NCBI GenBank assembly: GCA_963675295.2
Contig: CAXXKJ010000002.1
Coordinates: 2,112,001 to 2,176,000 of the forward strand
Reading direction: 5' to 3'
DNA from: a bacterium
GTDB lineage: Bacteria > Electryoneota > Electryoneia > Electryoneales > Electryoneaceae
Length of the DNA: 64,000 nt
The translations under genes were made by a program, and so were the position numbers. Shown in pieces: positions 1,977 through 61,468 of this stretch. Within the stretch, counting starts at the first letter, position 1. Every line of letters starts with the position of its first letter. Under the pieces are notes generated by a model. The model had not been told where the DNA came from. It searched no databases and saw only the letters and a program-made list of their open reading frames with translations.

Positions 1977-2477
1977 ATGGATGGATTGACCATCATCGAC
2001 GCGGAAGAGCAGCACCTTGACGCCGTTGTCGAGTTGTGGAATGAGCTGATGCAGTTTCACGCCGACCGGGACGTACGCTTCACCACGCGCAAGGGTGCGC
2101 ATGTCCTTTTCCGGGAGCATGTGAAGCAGTACATCGAGCGCGACGACGGCAAACTATGGCTGGCGTTTGTGGAGGATCAGCCCGCCGCGTTTGTCTCCGC
2201 CCGCTTCTCAACCACGCCGCCGGTGTTCGTTGGGCAGGAATCGGTCATTCTCGAGGATATGGTGGTGCTGGAAGCGTTTCGCCGCATGGGCCTGGGCCGC
2301 GAGTTGACGCAACGGGTGATCGACTGGGCGCAGGCGGAGGGCCGGGATAACGTGCAGCTGCAGGTCGCCGAGTGCAATCCGGAGGGGCAAAAGTTCTGGA
2401 ATGAAATGGGCTTCCGCGACATCACACGCGTCATGCGATACGAACTCGGTATCCACAAGGGATGGGACGAGAAATGA
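1977..2477 (+). CDS. GNAT family N-acetyltransferase
   Basis: [17 protein letters not shown] acetyl-CoA motif [14 protein letters not shown]; ATG at 1977 after GGGGAG. Confidence 0.85.
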
Positions 2478-2995
2478 AGAAGCTGCTTGTTGAAATCAAG
2501 GCGCGCTGCGCGGACCATGAACCGATCCGTGCTGAGTTGAACGAGCTCAACGCCCGCCGTGTTGGGCTCGATCACCAGGTCGACACGTACTTCCGCGTGC
2601 CGGAGAACCGGCTCAAGCTGCGTGAAGGCACGATCGAGAAAAACCTGATCTATTATCATCGTCCAAACCAGGCAGGGCCGAAACGCAGCGAGGTCATCCT
2701 GCACAAACCAGCCGAGACCGACTCACTCAAGGCAATTCTCGAGCGTGTTCACGGTATCCTCGTCATCGTCGACAAGCAACGCGAGATCTGGTTCGTGGAC
2801 AATGTCAAAATCCACCTCGACGAGGTGGATGGACTGGGGCGGTTCGTCGAAATAGAGGCTATCGGCGCGCCTGATACGCACACAGAGGACCAGCTCCGCG
2901 ATCAGTGTGAAGCTCTGATGCAGCGATTCCAGATCCGCGAGGACGATCTACTCACCTCATCCTACAGCGATATGCTGCTGGAAAAAGATGCCTGA
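2474..2995 (+). CDS. cyaB: CYTH domain protein (class IV adenylate cyclase-like)
   Basis: N-terminal [39 protein letters not shown]. Confidence 0.85.
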
Positions 2996-3003
2996 ACGGC
3001 AGG

Positions 3004-3402
3004 CTACTCAGTGAGTTCCCGGGGTGCGTCCTGCTCCCGCGTCGAGTCCTTCACCGTCGGCCGTCCCAAATTACGATACTCTTCCAACTTGAACAGGAAG
3101 GCGTCAGCAGTGTCATCACCGATCGAGCGGCGCATCTCCTCGACCATCGTCCGCACTTCTGTTTCCTGTTCGGTAAGCCGCTGGACATAATCCGCGCCGA
3201 GCTTATTCTGAGCGTCTTCGGCGCTGATTTCGTTGTTACGCAGCTGGCTCATGGTGTCGGACAGTTCCATCACCATCGACCGGTACTTCTCCAGCGCGAG
3301 CTGGATTTGTTCCTCGGGCGTGTGTTCAGCGCATCCGGAAATGAAAACGAGCGAGAACAGAGCAACGACGATGAGCACATCAAAGCGGGGCAGCTTGATC
3401 AT
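3004..3402 (-). CDS. Hypothetical lipoprotein (helical)
   Basis: MIKLPRFDVLIVVALFSLVFISGC lipobox; GAGG upstream of ATG at 3402. Confidence 0.65.
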   Translation of the reverse strand: MIKLPRFDVLIVVALFSLVFISGCAEHTPEEQIQLALEKYRSMVMELSDTMSQLRNNEISAEDAQNKLGADYVQRLTEQETEVRTMVEEMRRSIGDDTADAFLFKLEEYRNLGRPTVKDSTREQDAPRELTE

Positions 3403-3530: not shown

Positions 3531-5542
<2,012 letters not shown>

Positions 5543-5549
<7 letters not shown>

Positions 5550-5631
5550 GGTATGAGGTGTGAGGTGTGAGGTGTGAGGTATGAGTGAAACACAAGGCAC
5601 CAAGCACAAAACACAAAGCACAGAAAAACAA
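5543..5631 (+). repeat. Heptamer tandem arrays (GGTRTGA)x6 followed by degenerate (AACACAA)-like units
   Basis: Read directly; the first unit contains the uvrB TGA stop. Confidence 0.9.
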
Positions 5632-5677
5632 GATATTATAGTTAATTGTTATCGTATCAAATTTTTGAAACATAGAG

Positions 5678-6049
5678 ATGGAGGGTACGGTGAGGGATCA
5701 TAGATCATTGAAGGCGTATCAACTAGCTGATAAACTATGTTTAGTGATATACAGAGAAACAAAGACCTTTCCGAAAGATGAGATATTCGGACTTCGATCT
5801 CAAATCCGACGCGCAGCTGTATCAGTAGTCTCAAATATCACTGAAGGCTGTGGACGCAATACAGATGCAGATTTCCTGCGCTTTCTTGATATGGCGTTCG
5901 GGTCAATTCGCGAGTTGGAATATCAGGTATCGCTCGGGAAACGTTTGACGTATTTCAACATGGATCGTATTGAAGAGGTAGAACTCATTCTTGAAGAAAC
6001 AATTCGTGTACTACGCGGATTGATCGATTCGTTTAGAAACAAGTTGTGA
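5678..6049 (+). CDS. Four-helix-bundle protein (23S rRNA intervening-sequence protein family)
   Basis: L.AYQ.A..L...IY..TK.FPKDE.FGLRSQIRRAAVSVVSNITEGCGR....DFLRFL..AFGS..ELEYQ; visibly AT-rich relative to flanks. Confidence 0.93.
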   Translation: MEGTVRDHRSLKAYQLADKLCLVIYRETKTFPKDEIFGLRSQIRRAAVSVVSNITEGCGRNTDADFLRFLDMAFGSIRELEYQVSLGKRLTYFNMDRIEEVELILEETIRVLRGLIDSFRNKL

Positions 6050-6072
6050 TACCGGGTGTTTGAGGGTTTTAC

Positions 6073-6100
6073 TCACACCTCACACCTCATACCTCACACC
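6073..6100 (+). repeat. Heptamer array (TCAYACC)x4, reverse complement of the array at 5543-5584
   Basis: tcacacc tcacacc tcatacc tcacacc. Confidence 0.9.
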
Positions 6101-6112
6101 TGAGAGGTCTTG

Positions 6113-7399
6113 ATGAAAATCCTCATCATCGGCAGCGGCGGCCGTGAACACGCCCTCGCCTGGAAGATTCGCAAGAGCCCGCACGTGACGTGGGTCGGTT
6201 GCGCGCCGGGCAACGGCGGCACAACCGCCGTCGCAGAGAACGTGCAGCTCGACACGTCCAACCCGGACGCTGTCGTCAAGTACGTCATCGACAACGAGAT
6301 CGGCCTCACGGTCATCGGACCGGAAGCGCCGTTGGCGGACGGAATCGTGGACGCGTTCCCCAACGACGGCCAGCACTTTGTCTTCGGCCCCAGCGCGGGC
6401 GCGGCGAAGCTGGAAGCGTCCAAGCGCTGGGCGAAAGAGGTGATGGCGTCCGCCGGTGTCCCGACCGCACGCTGGCGTGGCTTTACCGATGCCGACGAGG
6501 CGATCCGCTACCTCAAGCAACGCAACGAGCCGGTGGTGGTCAAGGCGTCCGGCCTCGCGGCGGGGAAGGGTGTCTACGTCTGCAACAGCGCCGAGGCTGC
6601 GGTGGAAGCGGTCAAGGCGATCATGGTCGACCGTACGTACGGCGATTCAGGCGCGGAGATCATCGTCGAGGAACGCCTTGTCGGCACCGAGGCCAGCCTG
6701 ATCGCGGTGTGTGACGGCACCGATCATTTGGTGCTGGTCCCGTCGCGTGACCACAAGCGTGTTGGCGAGGGCGACACAGGCCCGAACACCGGCGGCATGG
6801 GCGCGATTGCGCCGAATCCGGCTCTCGATGCCGAGACAGTCAAGCTGTGCAGCGAAACCATCATCGCGCCGATCCTGCGGGAGTTGAAGGCGGACGGCAC
6901 CCCGTACAAGGGCGTGTTGTACGCCGGCATCATGTTGACCGAGGACGGTCCGAAAGTGCTCGAATACAACGTGCGCTTCGGCGATCCGGAGACGCAGGTC
7001 GTGCTGCCGTTGCTCAAGGTGGATCTCGTTGACCTGATGCTGCTTTCGGTCGGGGAGAAGCTCGGCCAGTTCATGCAGCAGTTCAACTTGCACAGTGAAG
7101 ACTGGCAGAGTGTCACCGAAACGAAGCATTGCGCGACGGTGGTTTTGGCGTCGCAGGGGTATCCGGGCGCATACGACAAGGGCAAGGCGATCAGCGGTCT
7201 GCCGAAAGAGCAGGACGATCTCGTCGTGTTCCACGCCGGCACAATAGCGGGGGACGGGGGCGTTGTCACCAGTGGCGGACGGGTGCTGAATGTGACCGCG
7301 CTGGGTGAGTCACTCGAGGACGCGCTCGGCAAGGCGTACGCCGCCGCCGATCAGATCCAGTTCGACGGCAAGATGCTCCGTCGCGACATCGGGAAGTGA
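6113..7399 (+). CDS. purD: Phosphoribosylamine-glycine ligase
   Basis: IIGSGGREHALAW, VVVKASGLAAGKGV, DHKRVGEGDTGPNTGGMG, EYNVRFGDPETQ. Confidence 0.98.
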   Translation: MKILIIGSGGREHALAWKIRKSPHVTWVGCAPGNGGTTAVAENVQLDTSNPDAVVKYVIDNEIGLTVIGPEAPLADGIVDAFPNDGQHFVFGPSAGAAKLEASKRWAKEVMASAGVPTARWRGFTDADEAIRYLKQRNEPVVVKASGLAAGKGVYVCNSAEAAVEAVKAIMVDRTYGDSGAEIIVEERLVGTEASLIAVCDGTDHLVLVPSRDHKRVGEGDTGPNTGGMGAIAPNPALDAETVKLCSETIIAPILRELKADGTPYKGVLYAGIMLTEDGPKVLEYNVRFGDPETQVVLPLLKVDLVDLMLLSVGEKLGQFMQQFNLHSEDWQSVTETKHCATVVLASQGYPGAYDKGKAISGLPKEQDDLVVFHAGTIAGDGGVVTSGGRVLNVTALGESLEDALGKAYAAADQIQFDGKMLRRDIGK

Positions 7400-7439
7400 T
7401 GCTGTAACCCGAGAGACGAAAGACGCGAGACGAGAGACG

Positions 7440-8159: not shown

Positions 8160-8164
8160 GGATC

Positions 8165-8393
8165 GTGCCCGTGTCTAACTGCAAGTGCCCGTGTCTGCTT
8201 GCAGACGCGGACCCGGGAAGGTGACTGCAACTTGTGCCCGTGTCTAACTGCAAGTGCCCGTGTCTGCTTGCAGACGCGGACCCGGTAAGGTGACTGCAAC
8301 TTGAGCCCCGTGTCGCAGAAGATGCAGACGCGGACCAGGTAAGGTGACTGCAACTTGAGCCCCGTGTCGCAGAAGATGCAGACGCGGACCCGG
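8165..8393. repeat. Tandem repeat (69, 69, 54 bp plus a partial unit) carrying REP-like hairpins CCGTGTCTGC-TT-GCAGACGCGG
   Basis: Units start at 8165, 8234, 8303 and 8357; no unique spacers. Confidence 0.85.
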
Positions 8394-14120: not shown

Positions 14121-14186
14121 ATCGGTAAACGGTTATCGGTTACCGGTTACCGACTACCGACTACCGACTACCGACTACCGACTACC
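14121..14186. repeat. Heptamer arrays (CGGTTAC-like then CGACTAC) between convergent genes
   Basis: Read directly; the two halves are roughly complementary. Confidence 0.8.
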
Positions 14187-14896: not shown

Positions 14897-14970
14897 GCTC
14901 ACAGCTCACAGCTCACAGCTCACAGCTCACAGCTCACAGCTCACCACTCACCACTCACCACTCACAACTG
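14897..14970. repeat. Heptamer array (GCTCACA)n/(CTCACCA)n abutting the M16 peptidase stop
   Basis: Read directly. Confidence 0.85.
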
Positions 14971-18674: not shown

Positions 18675-18863
18675 GCGCGTCTTGGCTTAGACCATGGATT
18701 CCGCCCCTGCCGGAAGATAAGACGGAGAAAGGCGTGGTGGGGTTGGTTTGACAGGGTTTGCCCCTGCTCGGGATGGGGATGGTGGTCGTCGGAGATCGAT
18801 AATCGGTGGTCGGTACTCGGTGAGTGGTAATCGGTGATCGGAAGGTGATACATGGTGTAAGGG

Positions 18864-24049: not shown

Positions 24050-24238
24050 TGCAGTGGTCAGTGATCAGTAGTCAGTGCTCAGAAGTCAGTGGTCAGTTGT
24101 CAGCACTCAGTTGTCAGTAACTCACAACTCATCACTCACCACTCACGACCGCTGATTACCGACCACCGACCACCGACCACCGAGTACCTATAACCGGCCA
24201 TCCGCCACCGAGAGACGAAAGACCAGAGACGAGAGACG
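24050..24238. repeat. Compound heptamer arrays (CAGTGGT-like, then CACTCAC/CGACCAC, then CGAGAGA)
   Basis: Read directly in the tdk-nupC intergenic region. Confidence 0.8.
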
Positions 24239-39824: not shown

Positions 39825-40009
39825 GCTCTATCTGCACAACTGGGCGATCATCAATTCCCACGGACTTAAGTCCGTGGTAAGAAACCTGGATGAGCGGCAA
39901 CCATCAATCGGCCACCGGTAACCATGTACCGATCACCGATCACCGATTACCGATTACCGGCAACCGATTGTCGTTTACCGACTACCGACCACCAATTACC
40001 GTCTACCGC

Positions 40010-42643
40010 TTACCTCACCAGCATCACTTTCTGCGTGTGATCGAGCTGGCCCGGCACCGTTGCGCGGACGAAATACAGCCCGCTCGCCAGCGAGGACGCG
40101 TCAAAGCTCAACGCGTGCGTCCCGGCGGCGATGCTGCCGTTGTGCAGCGTCGCGACCTGCTGTCCGGCGACATTATACACCGCGACGGTCAGCTCCGCCG
40201 TTTCCGGTAGAGTGATAGTCACTGTCGCTGTGGGATTGAATGGATTGGGGTAGACCGGTAGCATGGACCAGGTTCTGGGCAACGATTCGGTCACAGATCG
40301 GTGCATCGTGTTGCGTTGGCAGGTTGAGGACCAATCCGCGATCTCAGCTGAACCGGTACCGGTCTCGCTCTTGCTGAACGGAAGCGGTTCCACGATCTGC
40401 GGATGCAGGAACTGGGATTTGCCGAGGAACGCGTACAAGATGTAGTTGCCCGGTGGTGCGAAGTCTGGGACAAATTGTTCGACCTCATAGATCGAGATTT
40501 CGTTCGGACGCAACGTGAACCGGTCTTCAAATTGAATCGGCCGGTAGAGCCAGCTTTCCTCGTATTTCACCTTTGTGAACAGAAAAGCCGGATCAACGAT
40601 GAAGTCCAGATGGCTTTGCGCGTGGATTTCGTAGCTGAAGCTCCCTCCTGATGCCGGGATCTCCGTGGAGGAGGTGGGGACGAGTGTCAGCTCAACATCG
40701 TTTGGATCGCTGATGGCTTCGTTGCAATCCACAACGCTAAGCATGGGTTTGGTTGGGATTTCGTTGTAATTGTCGAGGGCATAGGCGTACCCGTTTTCAA
40801 CAGCGATCGAAAGGACACCTGATTCGGTGTCTGAATAGCCGACCTCATGGATCACGAATGGATCGCGTATGTCGAGGATGCGGACTTCACTCGCCCATTC
40901 GGTGTCGCTGTATTGATATCCGATGCCGACATAGGCGAAGCCGTTCTCGATGACCACGGAGGACGCCGAAGCTTCGAAATCATAGTATGCAGCAACGGTT
41001 GGGTTGTCTGCATCGCGAACGTCAAGAACCCGGATGCCGGAATAATCACCGTATTGATTGTGGTGAGTGACGTACACGAAACCATTCGCGTAAGCCAGGT
41101 CTGTCGGTTCCCACCAGCTGTCAATGGTGGCAACGAGTTCAGGCAGCATGGGATCGCTGGCGTCAATGATGTGTACACCATGATATCGTGTACTCAGGTA
41201 GACCATTCCGTCTGCAGCGGCTATGCCGTTAGTCTCTCCTTCGAGATCGAATTCTGTCAACAGGCTTGGCGTTGTCGGGTCGGACAAGTCATAGATCAGC
41301 AAGCCATCGTGGTTGCCCATATACAGGTAGCCGTCATCGACGGTCAATCGGTAGCCACGTCCGCCCGTTAGACTTAGTTGAACAGGTTCGACGGGATTGG
41401 ATACATCCAGAACATACAGGATTGAATGCGTCGCGCTGACATAAGCCAGGTCGCCAACCACCTTTACGTCATACCCATCTGCAGGTGACAGGTCGAAGTG
41501 GCCAACTTCATGAGGGGAGGTTGGATCACTGACATCCACGATACGCATGTTGCCGTATGCTGGAGATTGATCGAGAACGTAGAGGTAGCCAGCTTCAACG
41601 TCCGCCGCTGCGACGTTTGGTGGGTCGATGACGGAGCGGAAGAATGCGTTTGCCGGATCATGGACATCCAGAATGCGGTAGCCAGCGGGTTTTCGGCCAG
41701 ATTGGTCACCTACTAACACATGAGCGAACCCATCTTGCACAACGCAGTTCTGCACACTCCAGTCTTCACCAAGGTCAAACAGTTCGATGATGTTGGTGAG
41801 GGATGATATATCCAGGATATGAAACGAATCGTACTCATAGTAGGCATACAACAGCTCACCGACGAGCTGAATGTCCGTGTACGAATGGCCCGAATTGTAG
41901 GGTCGAATAAGACTTGGATTCAGCGGATCACTGATGTTGATGAATCGGAGGCCGTCTGAACCTACTGCGAGAACCGCATAGTCGCCGATGATTTCGATGT
42001 CGTGAACACGCCAGCCCGGGTTGTAATGGTTGATGATGACAGGGTTGGTGGGGTCGGACGAATCCAGAAATACGATTCCGGTTTCATCATCCGCCAGCCC
42101 CACGCAAACCGTTGTGCCCGTCACCGACATGCAATGCGCATCTTCAAATAATGAATTTGAGTAAAACAGTGTTTCAGGGTTAGCCCTGTCGCTAACATCG
42201 ACAATGATTAAACGAGTGCGGGTGGTCATGTAGAGAAGGTCGCCCACGAGTTGCAGACCTTCTGTGCCACCGTGCTGCGAGCGGCTTACATCCACAGGCG
42301 CTTCAGGATCGCTTACATCTACGATGACCAGATCATTACCGACGATCCAATACGCATAGTCCCCTTCCACGATGAGGTTGTCCGTACGGGAGAAGGGTAT
42401 GGATAGATCAAAATATCCGACGACGACCGGATTGTCCGGGTCGGAAATGTCAACGACAGCCAGCATGCCATAGAGGCCGATGTAAGCGTAATCACCTTGG
42501 ATATCCAGACTTTCATCATGGAACATGGCCTGGTACAGAGTTCCTGTAACTTCTGCGTTGAAGCCGCTTTGAGCAAATGCGGGTAACATGGTTAGAAACA
42601 GGACGATAAGGAACACGGGCAGCGTAAGTCTGGCAATATTCAT
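40010..42643 (-). CDS. Secreted LVIVD-repeat (beta-propeller) protein with Ig-like domain and T9SS-type CTD
   Basis: Signal peptide; repeated YAY....L.IVDVSDP..P..VG; YPNPFNP...ASGLYFVR...QKVMLVR. Confidence 0.9.
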   Translation of the reverse strand: MNIARLTLPVFLIVLFLTMLPAFAQSGFNAEVTGTLYQAMFHDESLDIQGDYAYIGLYGMLAVVDISDPDNPVVVGYFDLSIPFSRTDNLIVEGDYAYWIVGNDLVIVDVSDPEAPVDVSRSQHGGTEGLQLVGDLLYMTTRTRLIIVDVSDRANPETLFYSNSLFEDAHCMSVTGTTVCVGLADDETGIVFLDSSDPTNPVIINHYNPGWRVHDIEIIGDYAVLAVGSDGLRFINISDPLNPSLIRPYNSGHSYTDIQLVGELLYAYYEYDSFHILDISSLTNIIELFDLGEDWSVQNCVVQDGFAHVLVGDQSGRKPAGYRILDVHDPANAFFRSVIDPPNVAAADVEAGYLYVLDQSPAYGNMRIVDVSDPTSPHEVGHFDLSPADGYDVKVVGDLAYVSATHSILYVLDVSNPVEPVQLSLTGGRGYRLTVDDGYLYMGNHDGLLIYDLSDPTTPSLLTEFDLEGETNGIAAADGMVYLSTRYHGVHIIDASDPMLPELVATIDSWWEPTDLAYANGFVYVTHHNQYGDYSGIRVLDVRDADNPTVAAYYDFEASASSVVIENGFAYVGIGYQYSDTEWASEVRILDIRDPFVIHEVGYSDTESGVLSIAVENGYAYALDNYNEIPTKPMLSVVDCNEAISDPNDVELTLVPTSSTEIPASGGSFSYEIHAQSHLDFIVDPAFLFTKVKYEESWLYRPIQFEDRFTLRPNEISIYEVEQFVPDFAPPGNYILYAFLGKSQFLHPQIVEPLPFSKSETGTGSAEIADWSSTCQRNTMHRSVTESLPRTWSMLPVYPNPFNPTATVTITLPETAELTVAVYNVAGQQVATLHNGSIAAGTHALSFDASSLASGLYFVRATVPGQLDHTQKVMLVR

Positions 42644-43218
42644 GAGAATTCCCCCTTGGTCGTTGATAATGCAATTCAGAATAACACCTCAAGATCCAGA
42701 AATAATTAAGCATATGCAATGGTATAGACGATGTATTCTGTCTTTATTGAATCACGTGACTCCGGGGATACCCGTAACATGACAGCTCAGATTCACCCAG
42801 CCTGTTTGGCAGAATGCATGAAAAACCGATCAGCAGCAGCGTGAGCAGAACCTGGCTGGGTTCTTGTGAAGGATCCATCAAAAGAACACCTTCCGCGCGT
42901 CTTGTCCAAGTGACCGACAGCTTTGGATAAAATTAATCCTCCAGCGTCAACTGGCCGATTATCGCATGCAGATCCCACAACTCACCCTCACGGATGTCCG
43001 TGCGCACCTTGCCACGTCAAGTCGGGTTTTGCGGTGTTCAATGTAGAAGTTCAGAACCAGAAAAACGGGGAGCTCGAAGCTCCCCGTTTCTGTATCTGCA
43101 CATCTGCGCAGGTCATTCCTTACCACGGACTTAAATCCGTGGTAAGAAACATGGATGAGCGGCAATCACCAACCGGCAACCGATTGTCGTTTACCGACCA
43201 CCGAATACCGTCTACCGC

Positions 43219-44783: not shown

Positions 44784-45306
44784 TACCCCGCAGCAAGCTA
44801 CGGGGTATCGACTACTCACAGCTCAAGTCGACTTTGATGTAGCGGCTGGTAGTTAGCTTCTGTACCTTGGTTCATAACGTATTTTCTGATTGTATTTTCG
44901 TCACCGTGCGGACCTACGGTGGATATATAATAACCTTTTGTCCAAAATTCCCCACCCCAGAGCTGCTTTTTAACTTTGGGTTGTCGGATAAACATCTCTC
45001 GTGCTGTTATGCTCTTTATAGTTCGTACTAATTTTGTAGCACTCATGGTTGGCACGGATTGCACTAAGAAATGCACATGATCTCTATCTATTCCAATTTC
45101 TATAAATTCTATTTCATAACGTTTTTGGATTTCAAAGCAGATATCCTTTAATGTTAAATCTATCTCAGGTTCATCAAATACAACACGACGGTATTTCGCT
45201 ACACATACAAGATGGTATAGCAATATCGATACGTTGTGTTGTTTTCGGATCAGCTCAGACATTCCACAAGAAACCAACTGCAGCTGGCCGAAGCAAGCTT
45301 CGGGGC
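44784..45306 (-). mobile_element. IS200-type insertion sequence (tnpA only) with subterminal hairpins
   Basis: AT-rich; hairpins TACCCCGCAGCAAGCTACGGGGTA (44784-44807) and CCGAAGCAAGCTTCGG (45288-45303). Confidence 0.85.
44816..45262 (-). CDS. tnpA: IS200/IS605 family Y1 (HUH) transposase
   Basis: YHLVCVAKYRR, DHVH (HUH), KSITAR, LWGGEFWTKGY, IRKYV.NQ. Confidence 0.95.
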   Translation of the reverse strand: MSELIRKQHNVSILLYHLVCVAKYRRVVFDEPEIDLTLKDICFEIQKRYEIEFIEIGIDRDHVHFLVQSVPTMSATKLVRTIKSITAREMFIRQPKVKKQLWGGEFWTKGYYISTVGPHGDENTIRKYVMNQGTEANYQPLHQSRLEL

Positions 45307-61362: not shown

Positions 61363-61367
<5 letters not shown>

Positions 61368-61468
61368 GATGTGAGATACGAGATGTGAGACTATAGAGGA
61401 TGCTGTGTGATGTGCTGTGTGATGTGATGTGCGATGTGCTGTGAGATGTGTGCTATGAGATGTGAGCA
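61363..61468 (+). repeat. Heptamer arrays (GTGAGAT/GTGATGT/GCTGTGT) starting at the ligase stop codon
   Basis: Read directly; followed by palindromes CCACCGCGTAGCGGTGG (two copies) and GTGTGGCTTCAGCCACAC. Confidence 0.8.

Follow-up and report, generated by a model that had tools for sequence, protein, structure and literature searches.

Inverted heptamer arrays enclose a four-helix-bundle gene at the uvrB-purD junction of an Electryoneota bacterium

The window analyzed here is a stretch of 64,000 nucleotides from a bacterium of the family Electryoneaceae, phylum Electryoneota (GenBank assembly GCA_963675295.2, contig CAXXKJ010000002.1, positions 2,112,001 to 2,176,000). Between uvrB and purD, it carries a small gene of the four-helix-bundle family PF05635/TIGR02436, enclosed by two complementary tandem arrays of heptamers, denoted arms below. 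Comparisons within the genome, the genus and the phylum give good support to the conclusion that this cassette belongs to a class of hairpin cassettes with PF05635 genes, which insert in tight operon junctions, are selectively kept, and carry two complementary periodic arms. To our knowledge, PF05635/TIGR02436 is a large family without known function, familiar mainly from a few intervening sequences (IVSs) of 23S rRNA, and we know of no explanation so far for the tandem heptamer repeats of bacterial intergenic DNA. Unless another contig or locus is named, coordinates are positions in the 64-kb window, forward strand.

PF05635 cassettes in the genome, the genus and the phylum

The genome under study (G000; 4.81 Mb, two contigs) contains six PF05635 genes, and all six lie between inverted tandem arrays, five of them made of heptamers and one of decamers. 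The repeat words are GGTRTGA at uvrB-purD and also at TrkA/TrkH, TCAGTNN, GGTCTAT, GGGCTCA (13 units) facing AGAGCCC (8 units), and, in one copy, a unit of 10 nt. Each gene has the same orientation as both of its neighbors, the neighbor pairs being FliI-type ATPase/FliJ, TrkA/TrkH, SDR/Exo_endo_phos, riboflavin kinase/S15, PD40 protein/unnamed open reading frame (ORF), and UvrB/PurD. With pairwise identities of 45-62%, the six proteins are old paralogues, not recent copies; no near-identical cassette copies were found in G000.

Of the 79 phylum genomes searched, 62 contain PF05635. The survey covered 104 loci with 105 ORFs; one locus had no match and five ORFs had too little flanking sequence, leaving 100 evaluable cassettes, among which the six G000 copies and eight others from the same genus are not independent. 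Arms were scored against a null distribution in which each 5' flank was combined with 3' flanks taken from different cassettes, with the 99th percentile (score 14) as the threshold. Inverted arms exceeded this threshold in 71 of the 100 cassettes, with a period of 7 nt in 49 of these, 8 in 15, 9 in three, 10 in two, 6 in one, and none in one; several of the 29 cassettes below the threshold still have visibly periodic arms. Among flanks with only one strand open, the neighbor lies on the same strand as the cassette gene in 26 of 28 cases upstream and 31 of 35 downstream. Of the 71 cassettes, 62 begin with the G-rich arm, but because an inverted repeat reads alike on both strands, this preference reflects the handedness of the hairpin and is no evidence on its orientation to the gene. 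Runs of A and of T at the inner arm edges are weak features (24 vs 10 and 14 vs 7 of 71).

A previous reading of the window from the letters alone (hereafter, the sequence-only reading) had described a discrete cassette ending in inverted heptamer arrays, and had proposed to look for such flanks around other genes of the family and to compare the junction among relatives. The arms were recovered by direct reading, by Tandem Repeats Finder (TRF) and by an inverted-repeat search, the flanks recur around the family as described above, and both filled and empty junctions occur among relatives.

Thus, in G019 and G024, which belong to another family of the phylum, uvrB and purD are separated by 1 nt and 7 nt, respectively. 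The three remaining genomes of the genus (G001, G002 and G003) all have a PF05635 gene in the junction, with arms and with identities of 93, 62 and 63% to the G000 copy. Other sites are empty in part of the genus: fliI and fliJ overlap as ATGA in G002 and G003, and trkA and trkH are 6 nt apart in G001 (with flanks 97-100% identical to those of G000) and in G002, in each case without an array, and the ribF-rpsO junctions of G002 and G003 are 69-78 nt long and contain no arrays. The empty junctions in relatives identify the cassettes as insertions. By this comparison, the uvrB-purD synteny is old, with the cassette apparently inserted exactly between the uvrB stop and the purD start region.

In a tree of 26 rows from the family (25 distinct sequences, one G003 locus being included twice), the four uvrB-purD copies of the genus form a single clade (88/84), and these sequences show vertical descent of this copy within the genus. 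Two further clades unite the SDR/Exo_endo_phos copies of G000, G001 and G003 (100/99) and the FliI/FliJ copies of G000 and G001 (100/96). At the SDR site, the copy from G002 falls outside the clade of its site-mates and has different arms, which suggests that one cassette replaced another there. The right flank of the G000 cassette at the same site (locus L006, ~1976-2035) contains GACNAGA units outside the AGAGCCC arm that resemble the G002 arms (CTCTCGT/GACGAGA). The TrkA/TrkH copy is most simply interpreted as a recent gain in the G000 line, the alternative being two independent precise losses. No gene of the 79 phylum genomes is more than 61% identical to this copy, so the donor is not among the sampled genomes, and no target-site duplication was seen when the filled G000 junction was compared with the empty junction of G001. 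The description of the cassette as mobile in the sequence-only reading therefore holds with respect to gain and loss between species, whereas target duplication and recent copies within the genome were not found.

Gene-less junctions were also observed. In G004, where the family search found no PF05635 copies, the uvrB-purD junction (L016) contains (ACAGGAT)x3 and (ATCCTGT)x3 around ~260 nt, that is, a gene-less hairpin at the equivalent site; the same junction holds the inverted repeat GTCATCCTGA...TCAGGATGAC, and a related motif is found in L011. The G001 junction after the PD40/TolB-like gene (L159) is 259 nt long and gene-less, with units AAATGGT, AAATGGC ... AAATGGG; at this site, G000 carries a cassette with NNNATGG-type arms, and the G001 junction is either a cassette remnant or a pre-insertion site.

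The arms at the orthologous uvrB-purD site differ within the genus. Read from their TGA, the words are TGAGGTR/YACCTCA in G000 (6 and 4 units) and G001 (4 and 4), TGAGTKR/..ACTCA in G002 (4 and 4), and TGAGCTR/YAGCTCA in G003 (10 and 11 near-perfect units). Across three lineages, position 5 of the unit is thus paired as G-C, T-A and C-G, and this holds for all units of both arms. For the FliI/FliJ site, protein identity between G000 and G001 is 73%, and the words are unrelated (TCAGTNN vs GTCGGTA). Judging from these alignments, the arms turn over faster than the protein, and do so in concert; the concerted change could come from selection for complementarity or from copying between the arms. 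In the G001 FliI/FliJ cassette (L147), a lone ACTGAGT unit, the G000 word of the equivalent site, lies between the ORF stop and the ACCGANN arm.

Copying between arms is part of an explanation at the DNA level, under which the arms form hairpins or cruciforms at the ends of a mobile cassette, on which an enzyme acts in trans (e.g., a Y1 transposase or a recombination/repair nuclease), and the complementarity of the arms is kept by template switching, not by selection on RNA. We consider this explanation quite unlikely. It agrees with the gain and loss between sister species at several sites, with the joint expansion of both G003 arms, and with the relic units of other words beside the arms (GACNAGA at the G000 SDR site and ACTGAGT at the G001 FliI/FliJ site), and G000 has 12 Y1_Tnp matches, 8 of them with identical scores. 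However, the nearest of these is 39 kb from the uvrB-purD cassette, and a search for two families, RVT_1 and Y1_Tnp, found no transposase beside any cassette examined. The lack of a target-site duplication at TrkA/TrkH also speaks against this explanation, the age of the paralogues and the absence of any relative of the TrkA/TrkH copy above 61% identity give no sign of recent transposition, and the strict sense orientation in operons is unexpected for a DNA-only element. The statement of the sequence-only reading that neither a reverse transcriptase (RT) nor a transposase is adjacent to the uvrB-purD cassette is consistent with the same search of two families, in which the sole RVT_1 match of G000 (C2:3515028-3515576, in a gene of 318 aa) is ~1.4 Mb from the cassette.

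Two of these distant matches have features of their own. The RT, at L162 1237-2193 (minus strand; G000:C2 ~3.515 Mb), has upstream of it an ORF of 294 aa (2373-3257, minus strand) with no Pfam match, and the two look like a retron-type pair. The nearest Y1_Tnp match, at window positions 44867-45232 (minus strand), is of the IS200/IS605 type with an open frame of 163 aa, and is one of the eight with identical scores.

Anatomy of the uvrB-purD cassette and its protein

The cassette has a total size of ~560 nt. Its features and neighbors are the following:

3531..5549, plus strand: uvrB, ORF of 672 aa with UvrB_inter, UvrB, Helicase_C and UVR domains (Pfam)
5547-5549, plus strand: uvrB stop codon TGA, inside the first heptamer unit
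5543..5584, plus strand: 5' arm, (GGTRTGA)x6, G-rich (direct reading, TRF, inverted-repeat search)
5588..5631, plus strand: inner degenerate A/C-rich period-7 array (AAACACA-like) in the 5' leader (TRF, 6.1 copies, 71% matches)
5680..5685, plus strand: Shine-Dalgarno sequence GGAGGG of the four-helix-bundle gene; GGAGG is kept in G001
5690..6049, plus strand: four-helix-bundle gene (PF05635/TIGR02436), probably 119 aa from GTG 5690 (Pfam, TIGR02436, 2GSC)
6050..6072, plus strand: 3' untranslated stretch ending ...GTTTGAGGGTTTTAC; GTTTTAC at its end pairs with GTGAAAC at 5585-5591, lengthening the stem
6073..6100, plus strand: 3' arm, (TCAYACC)x4, C-rich, reverse complement of the 5' arm (direct reading, TRF, inverted-repeat search)
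6102..6107, plus strand: purD Shine-Dalgarno sequence GAGAGG, 1 nt past the last arm unit (6100); the predicted stem ends at 6101
6113..7399, plus strand: purD (phosphoribosylamine-glycine ligase), with GARS_N, GARS_A and GARS_C domains
7410..7439, plus strand: solitary heptamer array of CGAGAGA type, 4 units (TRF), outside the cassette and given as context

The 5' arm units are, in order, GGTATGA, GGTATGA, GGTGTGA, GGTGTGA, GGTGTGA and GGTATGA, and those of the 3' arm are TCACACC, TCACACC, TCATACC and TCACACC, the last of which ends 12 nt before the purD ATG (6113). The sequence-only reading had given six GGTRTGA units with the uvrB stop in the first and four TCAYACC units ending about 12 nt before purD; the letters read this way directly, and TRF agrees (period 7 for both arms, 6.3 copies in the 5' arm and 4.3 in the 3' arm). 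Its proposal that the arms can pair into a long stem around a loop is borne out by the inverted-repeat search, which aligns 30 nt at 97% (5542-5571 / 6072-6101, spacing 500 nt) or, alternatively, 36 nt at 92% (5556-5591 / 6066-6101, spacing 474 nt). The 30-nt match, with its one mismatch, has a score of 27, compared to 14 for the 99th percentile of the mismatched-flank null. Folding of positions 5530-6125 as RNA yields a minimum free energy of -191.4 kcal/mol (z -6.4; none of 100 shuffles was as good), and the predicted stem of ~36 bp encloses the whole cassette, with the purD Shine-Dalgarno sequence just outside it. At the position equivalent to the inner array (5588-5631), G001 has (AAACACC)-like units, and this array is possibly a relic of an older arm. 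A search of positions 5400-6250 against Rfam gave no family at threshold and a chance match below it. An apparent joint between 5595 and 6072 was considered as an excised form and rejected: the match of the 15,357-nt contig in question is confined to 40 nt of the arm and has 6 differences, so that the contig represents another locus with the same word.

The ORF at 5678-6049 matches PF05635 with 112.3 bits (cut-off 33.8), and the cassette protein matches TIGR02436 with 109.3 bits (cut-off 24) and the PDB structures 2GSC (E 8.1e-20, residues 2-116) and 2RLD (E 2.3e-4), each of which has 5 chains in its entry. The GC content of the ORF is 0.42, compared to 0.57 in the flanks. The AT-rich four-helix-bundle gene of the sequence-only reading is thereby recovered, apart from its length of 123 aa, which corresponds to the alternative start ATG 5678. 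The start is probably GTG 5690, giving 119 aa, because GGAGGG precedes it at 5680-5685, and because the other five copies and the orthologues begin with M/V-R/Q-D-H/Y.

Between G000 and G001, the uvrB-purD gene has a nonsynonymous distance (dN) of 0.039 and a synonymous distance (dS) of 1.58, that is, a dN/dS of 0.02; the ratio is 0.02 for the SDR-site pair and 0.13 for the ribF-site pair. These sequences show strong purifying selection on the cassette protein at uvrB-purD. From the stop codon to the purD ATG, a segment that comprises the 3' untranslated region, the 3' arm and the Shine-Dalgarno sequence, 62 of 65 aligned columns are identical between the two genomes despite the dS of 1.58. 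The 5' leader is poorly conserved and contains indels, and the 5' arm is shorter by two units in G001.

The sequence-only reading had also connected the family with 23S rRNA IVSs and with Avd of diversity-generating retroelements. The profile matches, together with excerpts of PMC4990558, substantiate the IVS link, and the likeness to Avd is weak. The cassette protein resembles Avd as a small four-helix-bundle protein with weak profile similarity, but both profile scores are below the cut-off (PF22296, 23.9 bits, cut-off 40, E 6.3e-05; NF033474, 24.9 bits, cut-off 80, E 1.9e-05), and there is no adjacent reverse transcriptase.

The interval from the purD stop (7397-7399) to the ATG (7440) of the downstream gene, which encodes a protein with a metallo-beta-lactamase fold, is occupied by the solitary array at 7410-7439 (CGAGAGA, CGAAAGA, CGCGAGA, CGAGAGA, CG). 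purD is thus flanked by heptamer arrays at both ends. Beyond the metallo-beta-lactamase-fold gene, positions 8164-8393 contain tandem repeats with units of 69 and 54 nt and 96-97% matches.

Heptamer arrays outside the cassettes

TRF identified 440 merged period-7 arrays of at least three units in G000, which cover 16,952 bases and include 95 canonical words. Under one strict scoring, 106 arrays have period 7, compared to 0-7 for each of the periods 4-6 and 8-12. Intergenic tandem repeats of heptamers are also represented by the short tandemly repeated repetitive (STRR) sequences of cyanobacteria. The G000 arrays avoid coding sequence, with 80 of the 440 inside kept ORF spans that, in this crude gene map, cover ~80% of the genome. 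An array starts no more than 25 nt from a stop codon in 177 array-gene pairs, or 176 by another count, and it is G-rich on the coding strand of that gene in 159 of these and C-rich in 16. The unit carries a stop on one strand in 299 of the 440 arrays, compared to 32-42% of random heptamers, and 91 of the 177 stop-abutting arrays have stops in all three frames. Three-frame stops were examined as a rule for the cassette arms and rejected, as all three frames are stopped in only 18 of 71 cassette 5' arms, and 21 have no stop at all.

An inverted partner within 1.2 kb was found for 31 of the 440 arrays (15 pairs), compared to 5 of 440 in a control with a one-sided window 20 kb away. Loops of cassette size (404-515 nt) occur in five pairs, four of which were identified as cassettes; most of the remaining pairs are 'empty', with loops of 65-250 nt. 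Most arrays in G000 are solitary and polar, and inverted pairing is rare among them, yet it occurs at all six PF05635 genes. Inside 'empty' inverted heptamer pairs (G000:C2 ~973253, 1093374 and 3949749) lies a GC-rich, terminator- or REP-like hairpin of the form CCACGGACTnnAGTCCGTGG, which occurs at several loci. The window itself contains further period-7 arrays of other words at 14121-14186, 14897-14966, 18789-18841, 24052-24238, 39913-40014, 43192-43217 and 61364-61466.

With arrays this numerous, the gene might merely lie between two products of general intergenic slippage. The scatter of the 440 arrays, mostly outside coding spans and often abutting stops, fits such a coincidence, as does the fact that cassette words are common among the free arrays (24 arrays of the ACACCTC class). 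Nevertheless, this interpretation can hardly be credited, given that 31 of 440 arrays are paired and yet six of six PF05635 genes lie within such pairs, that empty sister junctions have no array at all, and that the family genes are likewise enclosed by inverted arrays in genomes such as G019, G024 and G027, which carry 6-15 copies and gave 0-1 free arrays in samples of 80 kb.

Free arrays are dense in the genus, at 9.1 per 100 kb in G000 and 6.2 in G001, and sparse in the other relatives sampled, including the genomes with 6-15 copies. Against PF05635 copy number, array density gave a rho of 0.47 (p 0.017) in samples of ~80 kb from 24 relatives, but this figure is biased, as the relatives are not independent by kinship and the samples of G002, G003, G005, G018, G045 and G049 were contigs picked for a PF05635 match. 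The remaining samples contain 5 arrays in 634 kb of zero-copy genomes vs 10 in 720 kb of copy-bearing genomes. Dense free arrays look like a trait of the genus that is not tied to the gene copy number.

Possible roles of the arms and relation to known systems

The explanation we favor, tentatively, is that of an IVS-type hairpin cassette that is co-transcribed with the operon and whose 30-36 bp RNA stem is a substrate of RNase III, the grounds for it being a design shared with one characterized case and the geometry at the foot of the stem. The cassette, which has its own ribosome-binding site and apparently no promoter of its own, would be transcribed together with uvrB and purD. In the transcript, the arms would pair into a duplex of 30-36 bp that loops out ~475-500 nt and brings the uvrB stop and the purD Shine-Dalgarno sequence and ATG to the foot of the stem. 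Cleavage of this duplex by RNase III, a gene for which is present in G000, would free the four-helix-bundle mRNA and part the uvrB and purD messages, and release by cutting would allow the insertion to be tolerated in a tight operon junction. The only terminator-like hairpin on the sense strand of positions 5400-6250 is weak and lies inside the ORF. The sequence-only reading had likewise offered processing of the cassette out of the uvrB-purD transcript, or an effect on purD translation, as possibilities; the one sequence test bearing on pairing in the sense RNA, given below, was neutral.

The characterized case is the 23S rRNA IVS of Coxiella burnetii. According to excerpts of Warrier et al. 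(2016; PMC4990558), it is 428 nt long, with a 28-bp stem and heptameric direct repeats in its 5' region, its stem is cleaved by RNase III in vitro, and its ORF is argued to be decaying; the same excerpts cite Ralph and McClelland (1993) for ORF-bearing IVSs of Leptospira. Going by this source, 23S rRNA IVSs and the uvrB-purD cassette share the protein family encoded in the loop, the terminal inverted repeats that form a long stem around the ORF, and the sense direction relative to the transcribed gene; the heptameric repeats of Coxiella compare to (GGTRTGA)x6, and the size of 428 nt to ~560 nt. Unlike these IVSs, which are located in helix 9, 25 or 45 of 23S rRNA (helix 45 in Coxiella), the cassette occupies a junction between the uvrB stop and the purD start, and its ORF is strongly constrained (dN/dS 0.02), in contrast to the one argued to be decaying. 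RNase III cleavage was seen in vitro in the Coxiella case, and for the cassette it is a prediction.

Several observations weigh against the RNase III explanation. RNase III needs only a long duplex, so that the periodicity of the arms, the range of periods from 7 to 10, and the preference for the G-rich arm in first position are left unexplained. With inverted partners for so few arrays and most arrays solitary, whatever makes or uses the arrays needs no stem. A scan of positions 5400-6250 found no sense-strand sigma-70-like promoter, but this was a crude consensus match, which could miss an internal promoter in the AT-rich leader. In the 71 arm pairs, sense G.U mismatches are not in excess over A.C mismatches (40 vs 50, binomial p 0.34; 129 are of other kinds), and the arms accordingly behave like arrays of like units rather than RNA-tuned stems, a point that also favors the DNA-level explanation. 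The unexplained periodicity and the solitary polar arrays leave room both for the latter and for a model in which a protein reads the repeats.

In the protein-binding model, the arms are periodic binding sites of a pentameric four-helix-bundle ring, each subunit of which would contact one unit of single-stranded RNA or DNA. Occupation of one arm would be in competition with stem formation and so set the level of the cassette's own mRNA or of the downstream gene, which is compatible with RNase III processing. Recognition of this kind has a parallel in TRAP and its GAG repeats, where ring proteins read spaced triplets. The model is possible but not probable. In its favor, the units combine a conserved core with variable positions at a strict period, and most arm mismatches fall at the variable positions and are not wobble pairs; the arms usually have 3-6 units; 2GSC and 2RLD, the solved structures nearest to the protein (2GSC foremost), have 5 chains each; and the protein, with its dN/dS of 0.02, is nearly always accompanied by arms. 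Within G000, the two copies that share a word (uvrB-purD and TrkA/TrkH) are each other's closest paralogues (58%), and the 849k and 3547k copies (62%) share 5 of 7 word positions. Conversely, the uvrB-purD proteins of G002 and G003 are 83% identical and have the words TGAGTKR and TGAGCTR, the FliI/FliJ proteins of G000 and G001 have unrelated words despite their similarity, and 95 canonical words in 440 arrays face only six proteins. The sequence evidence for a protein-word code is thus contradictory.

Apart from IVSs, the most similar repeats described are the TAACTGA repeats of Beggiatoaceae, cyanobacteria and Bacteroidetes, for which excerpts of MacGregor (2015; PMC4679880) report 169 direct sets and one inverted set in the genome studied there. 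As presented in this source, they likewise have from two to six or more 7-nt units, and are nearly all intergenic and gene-oriented, with some that overlap the upstream stop and provide stops in all three frames, but they are direct repeats of essentially one word with no associated gene, whereas G000 has 95 words and inverted pairs that enclose a PF05635 gene. Term searches of the available text of PMC4679880 returned 0 occurrences of four-helix-bundle or intervening-sequence terms. Like miniature inverted-repeat transposable elements (MITEs) and the hairpins of repetitive extragenic palindromes and bacterial interspersed mosaic elements (REP/BIME), the cassettes are small and intergenic and have inverted ends; relatives differ in whether a site is occupied, and G000 also contains versions without a gene (loops of 65-250 nt). 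Unlike these elements, they end in tandem arrays of short units whose word varies by copy, and have no near-identical copies, target duplication, or cognate transposase beside them. A full-text literature search, beyond whose reach most subscription journals lie, turned up neither a description of the class nor a paper connecting genes of PF05635 or of four-helix-bundle type with inverted heptamer arrays outside rRNA.

The new elements in the present analysis are the filled and empty alleles in one genus, the concerted arm change at an orthologous site, the dN/dS estimates, the neutral G.U test, and the solitary polar arrays. A PF05635 gene and heptamer repeats form one insertable unit that enters stop/start junctions of housekeeping operons (uvrB-purD, fliI-fliJ, trkA-trkH and ribF-rpsO) and is evidently tolerated there. 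The genus amounts to a natural experiment, with three arm words at one site, filled and empty alleles in close species, and a constrained protein, which makes stem cutting, repeat binding and joint rewriting of the arms directly testable.

A more far-reaching possibility, which in our estimate is improbable, is that the cassette represents the self-contained form of a genome-wide system. Under this scenario, pentameric proteins would recognize polar G-rich arrays of 7-10-nt units behind stop codons (of at least 159 genes) and in operon junctions, setting mRNA processing, stability or translational coupling, and the gene-bearing hairpins would spread by a mechanism that writes both arms from one template. 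If true, this would provide a function for a large 'hypothetical' family and for bacterial heptamer repeats, and the 23S rRNA IVSs would be a special case of the same system.

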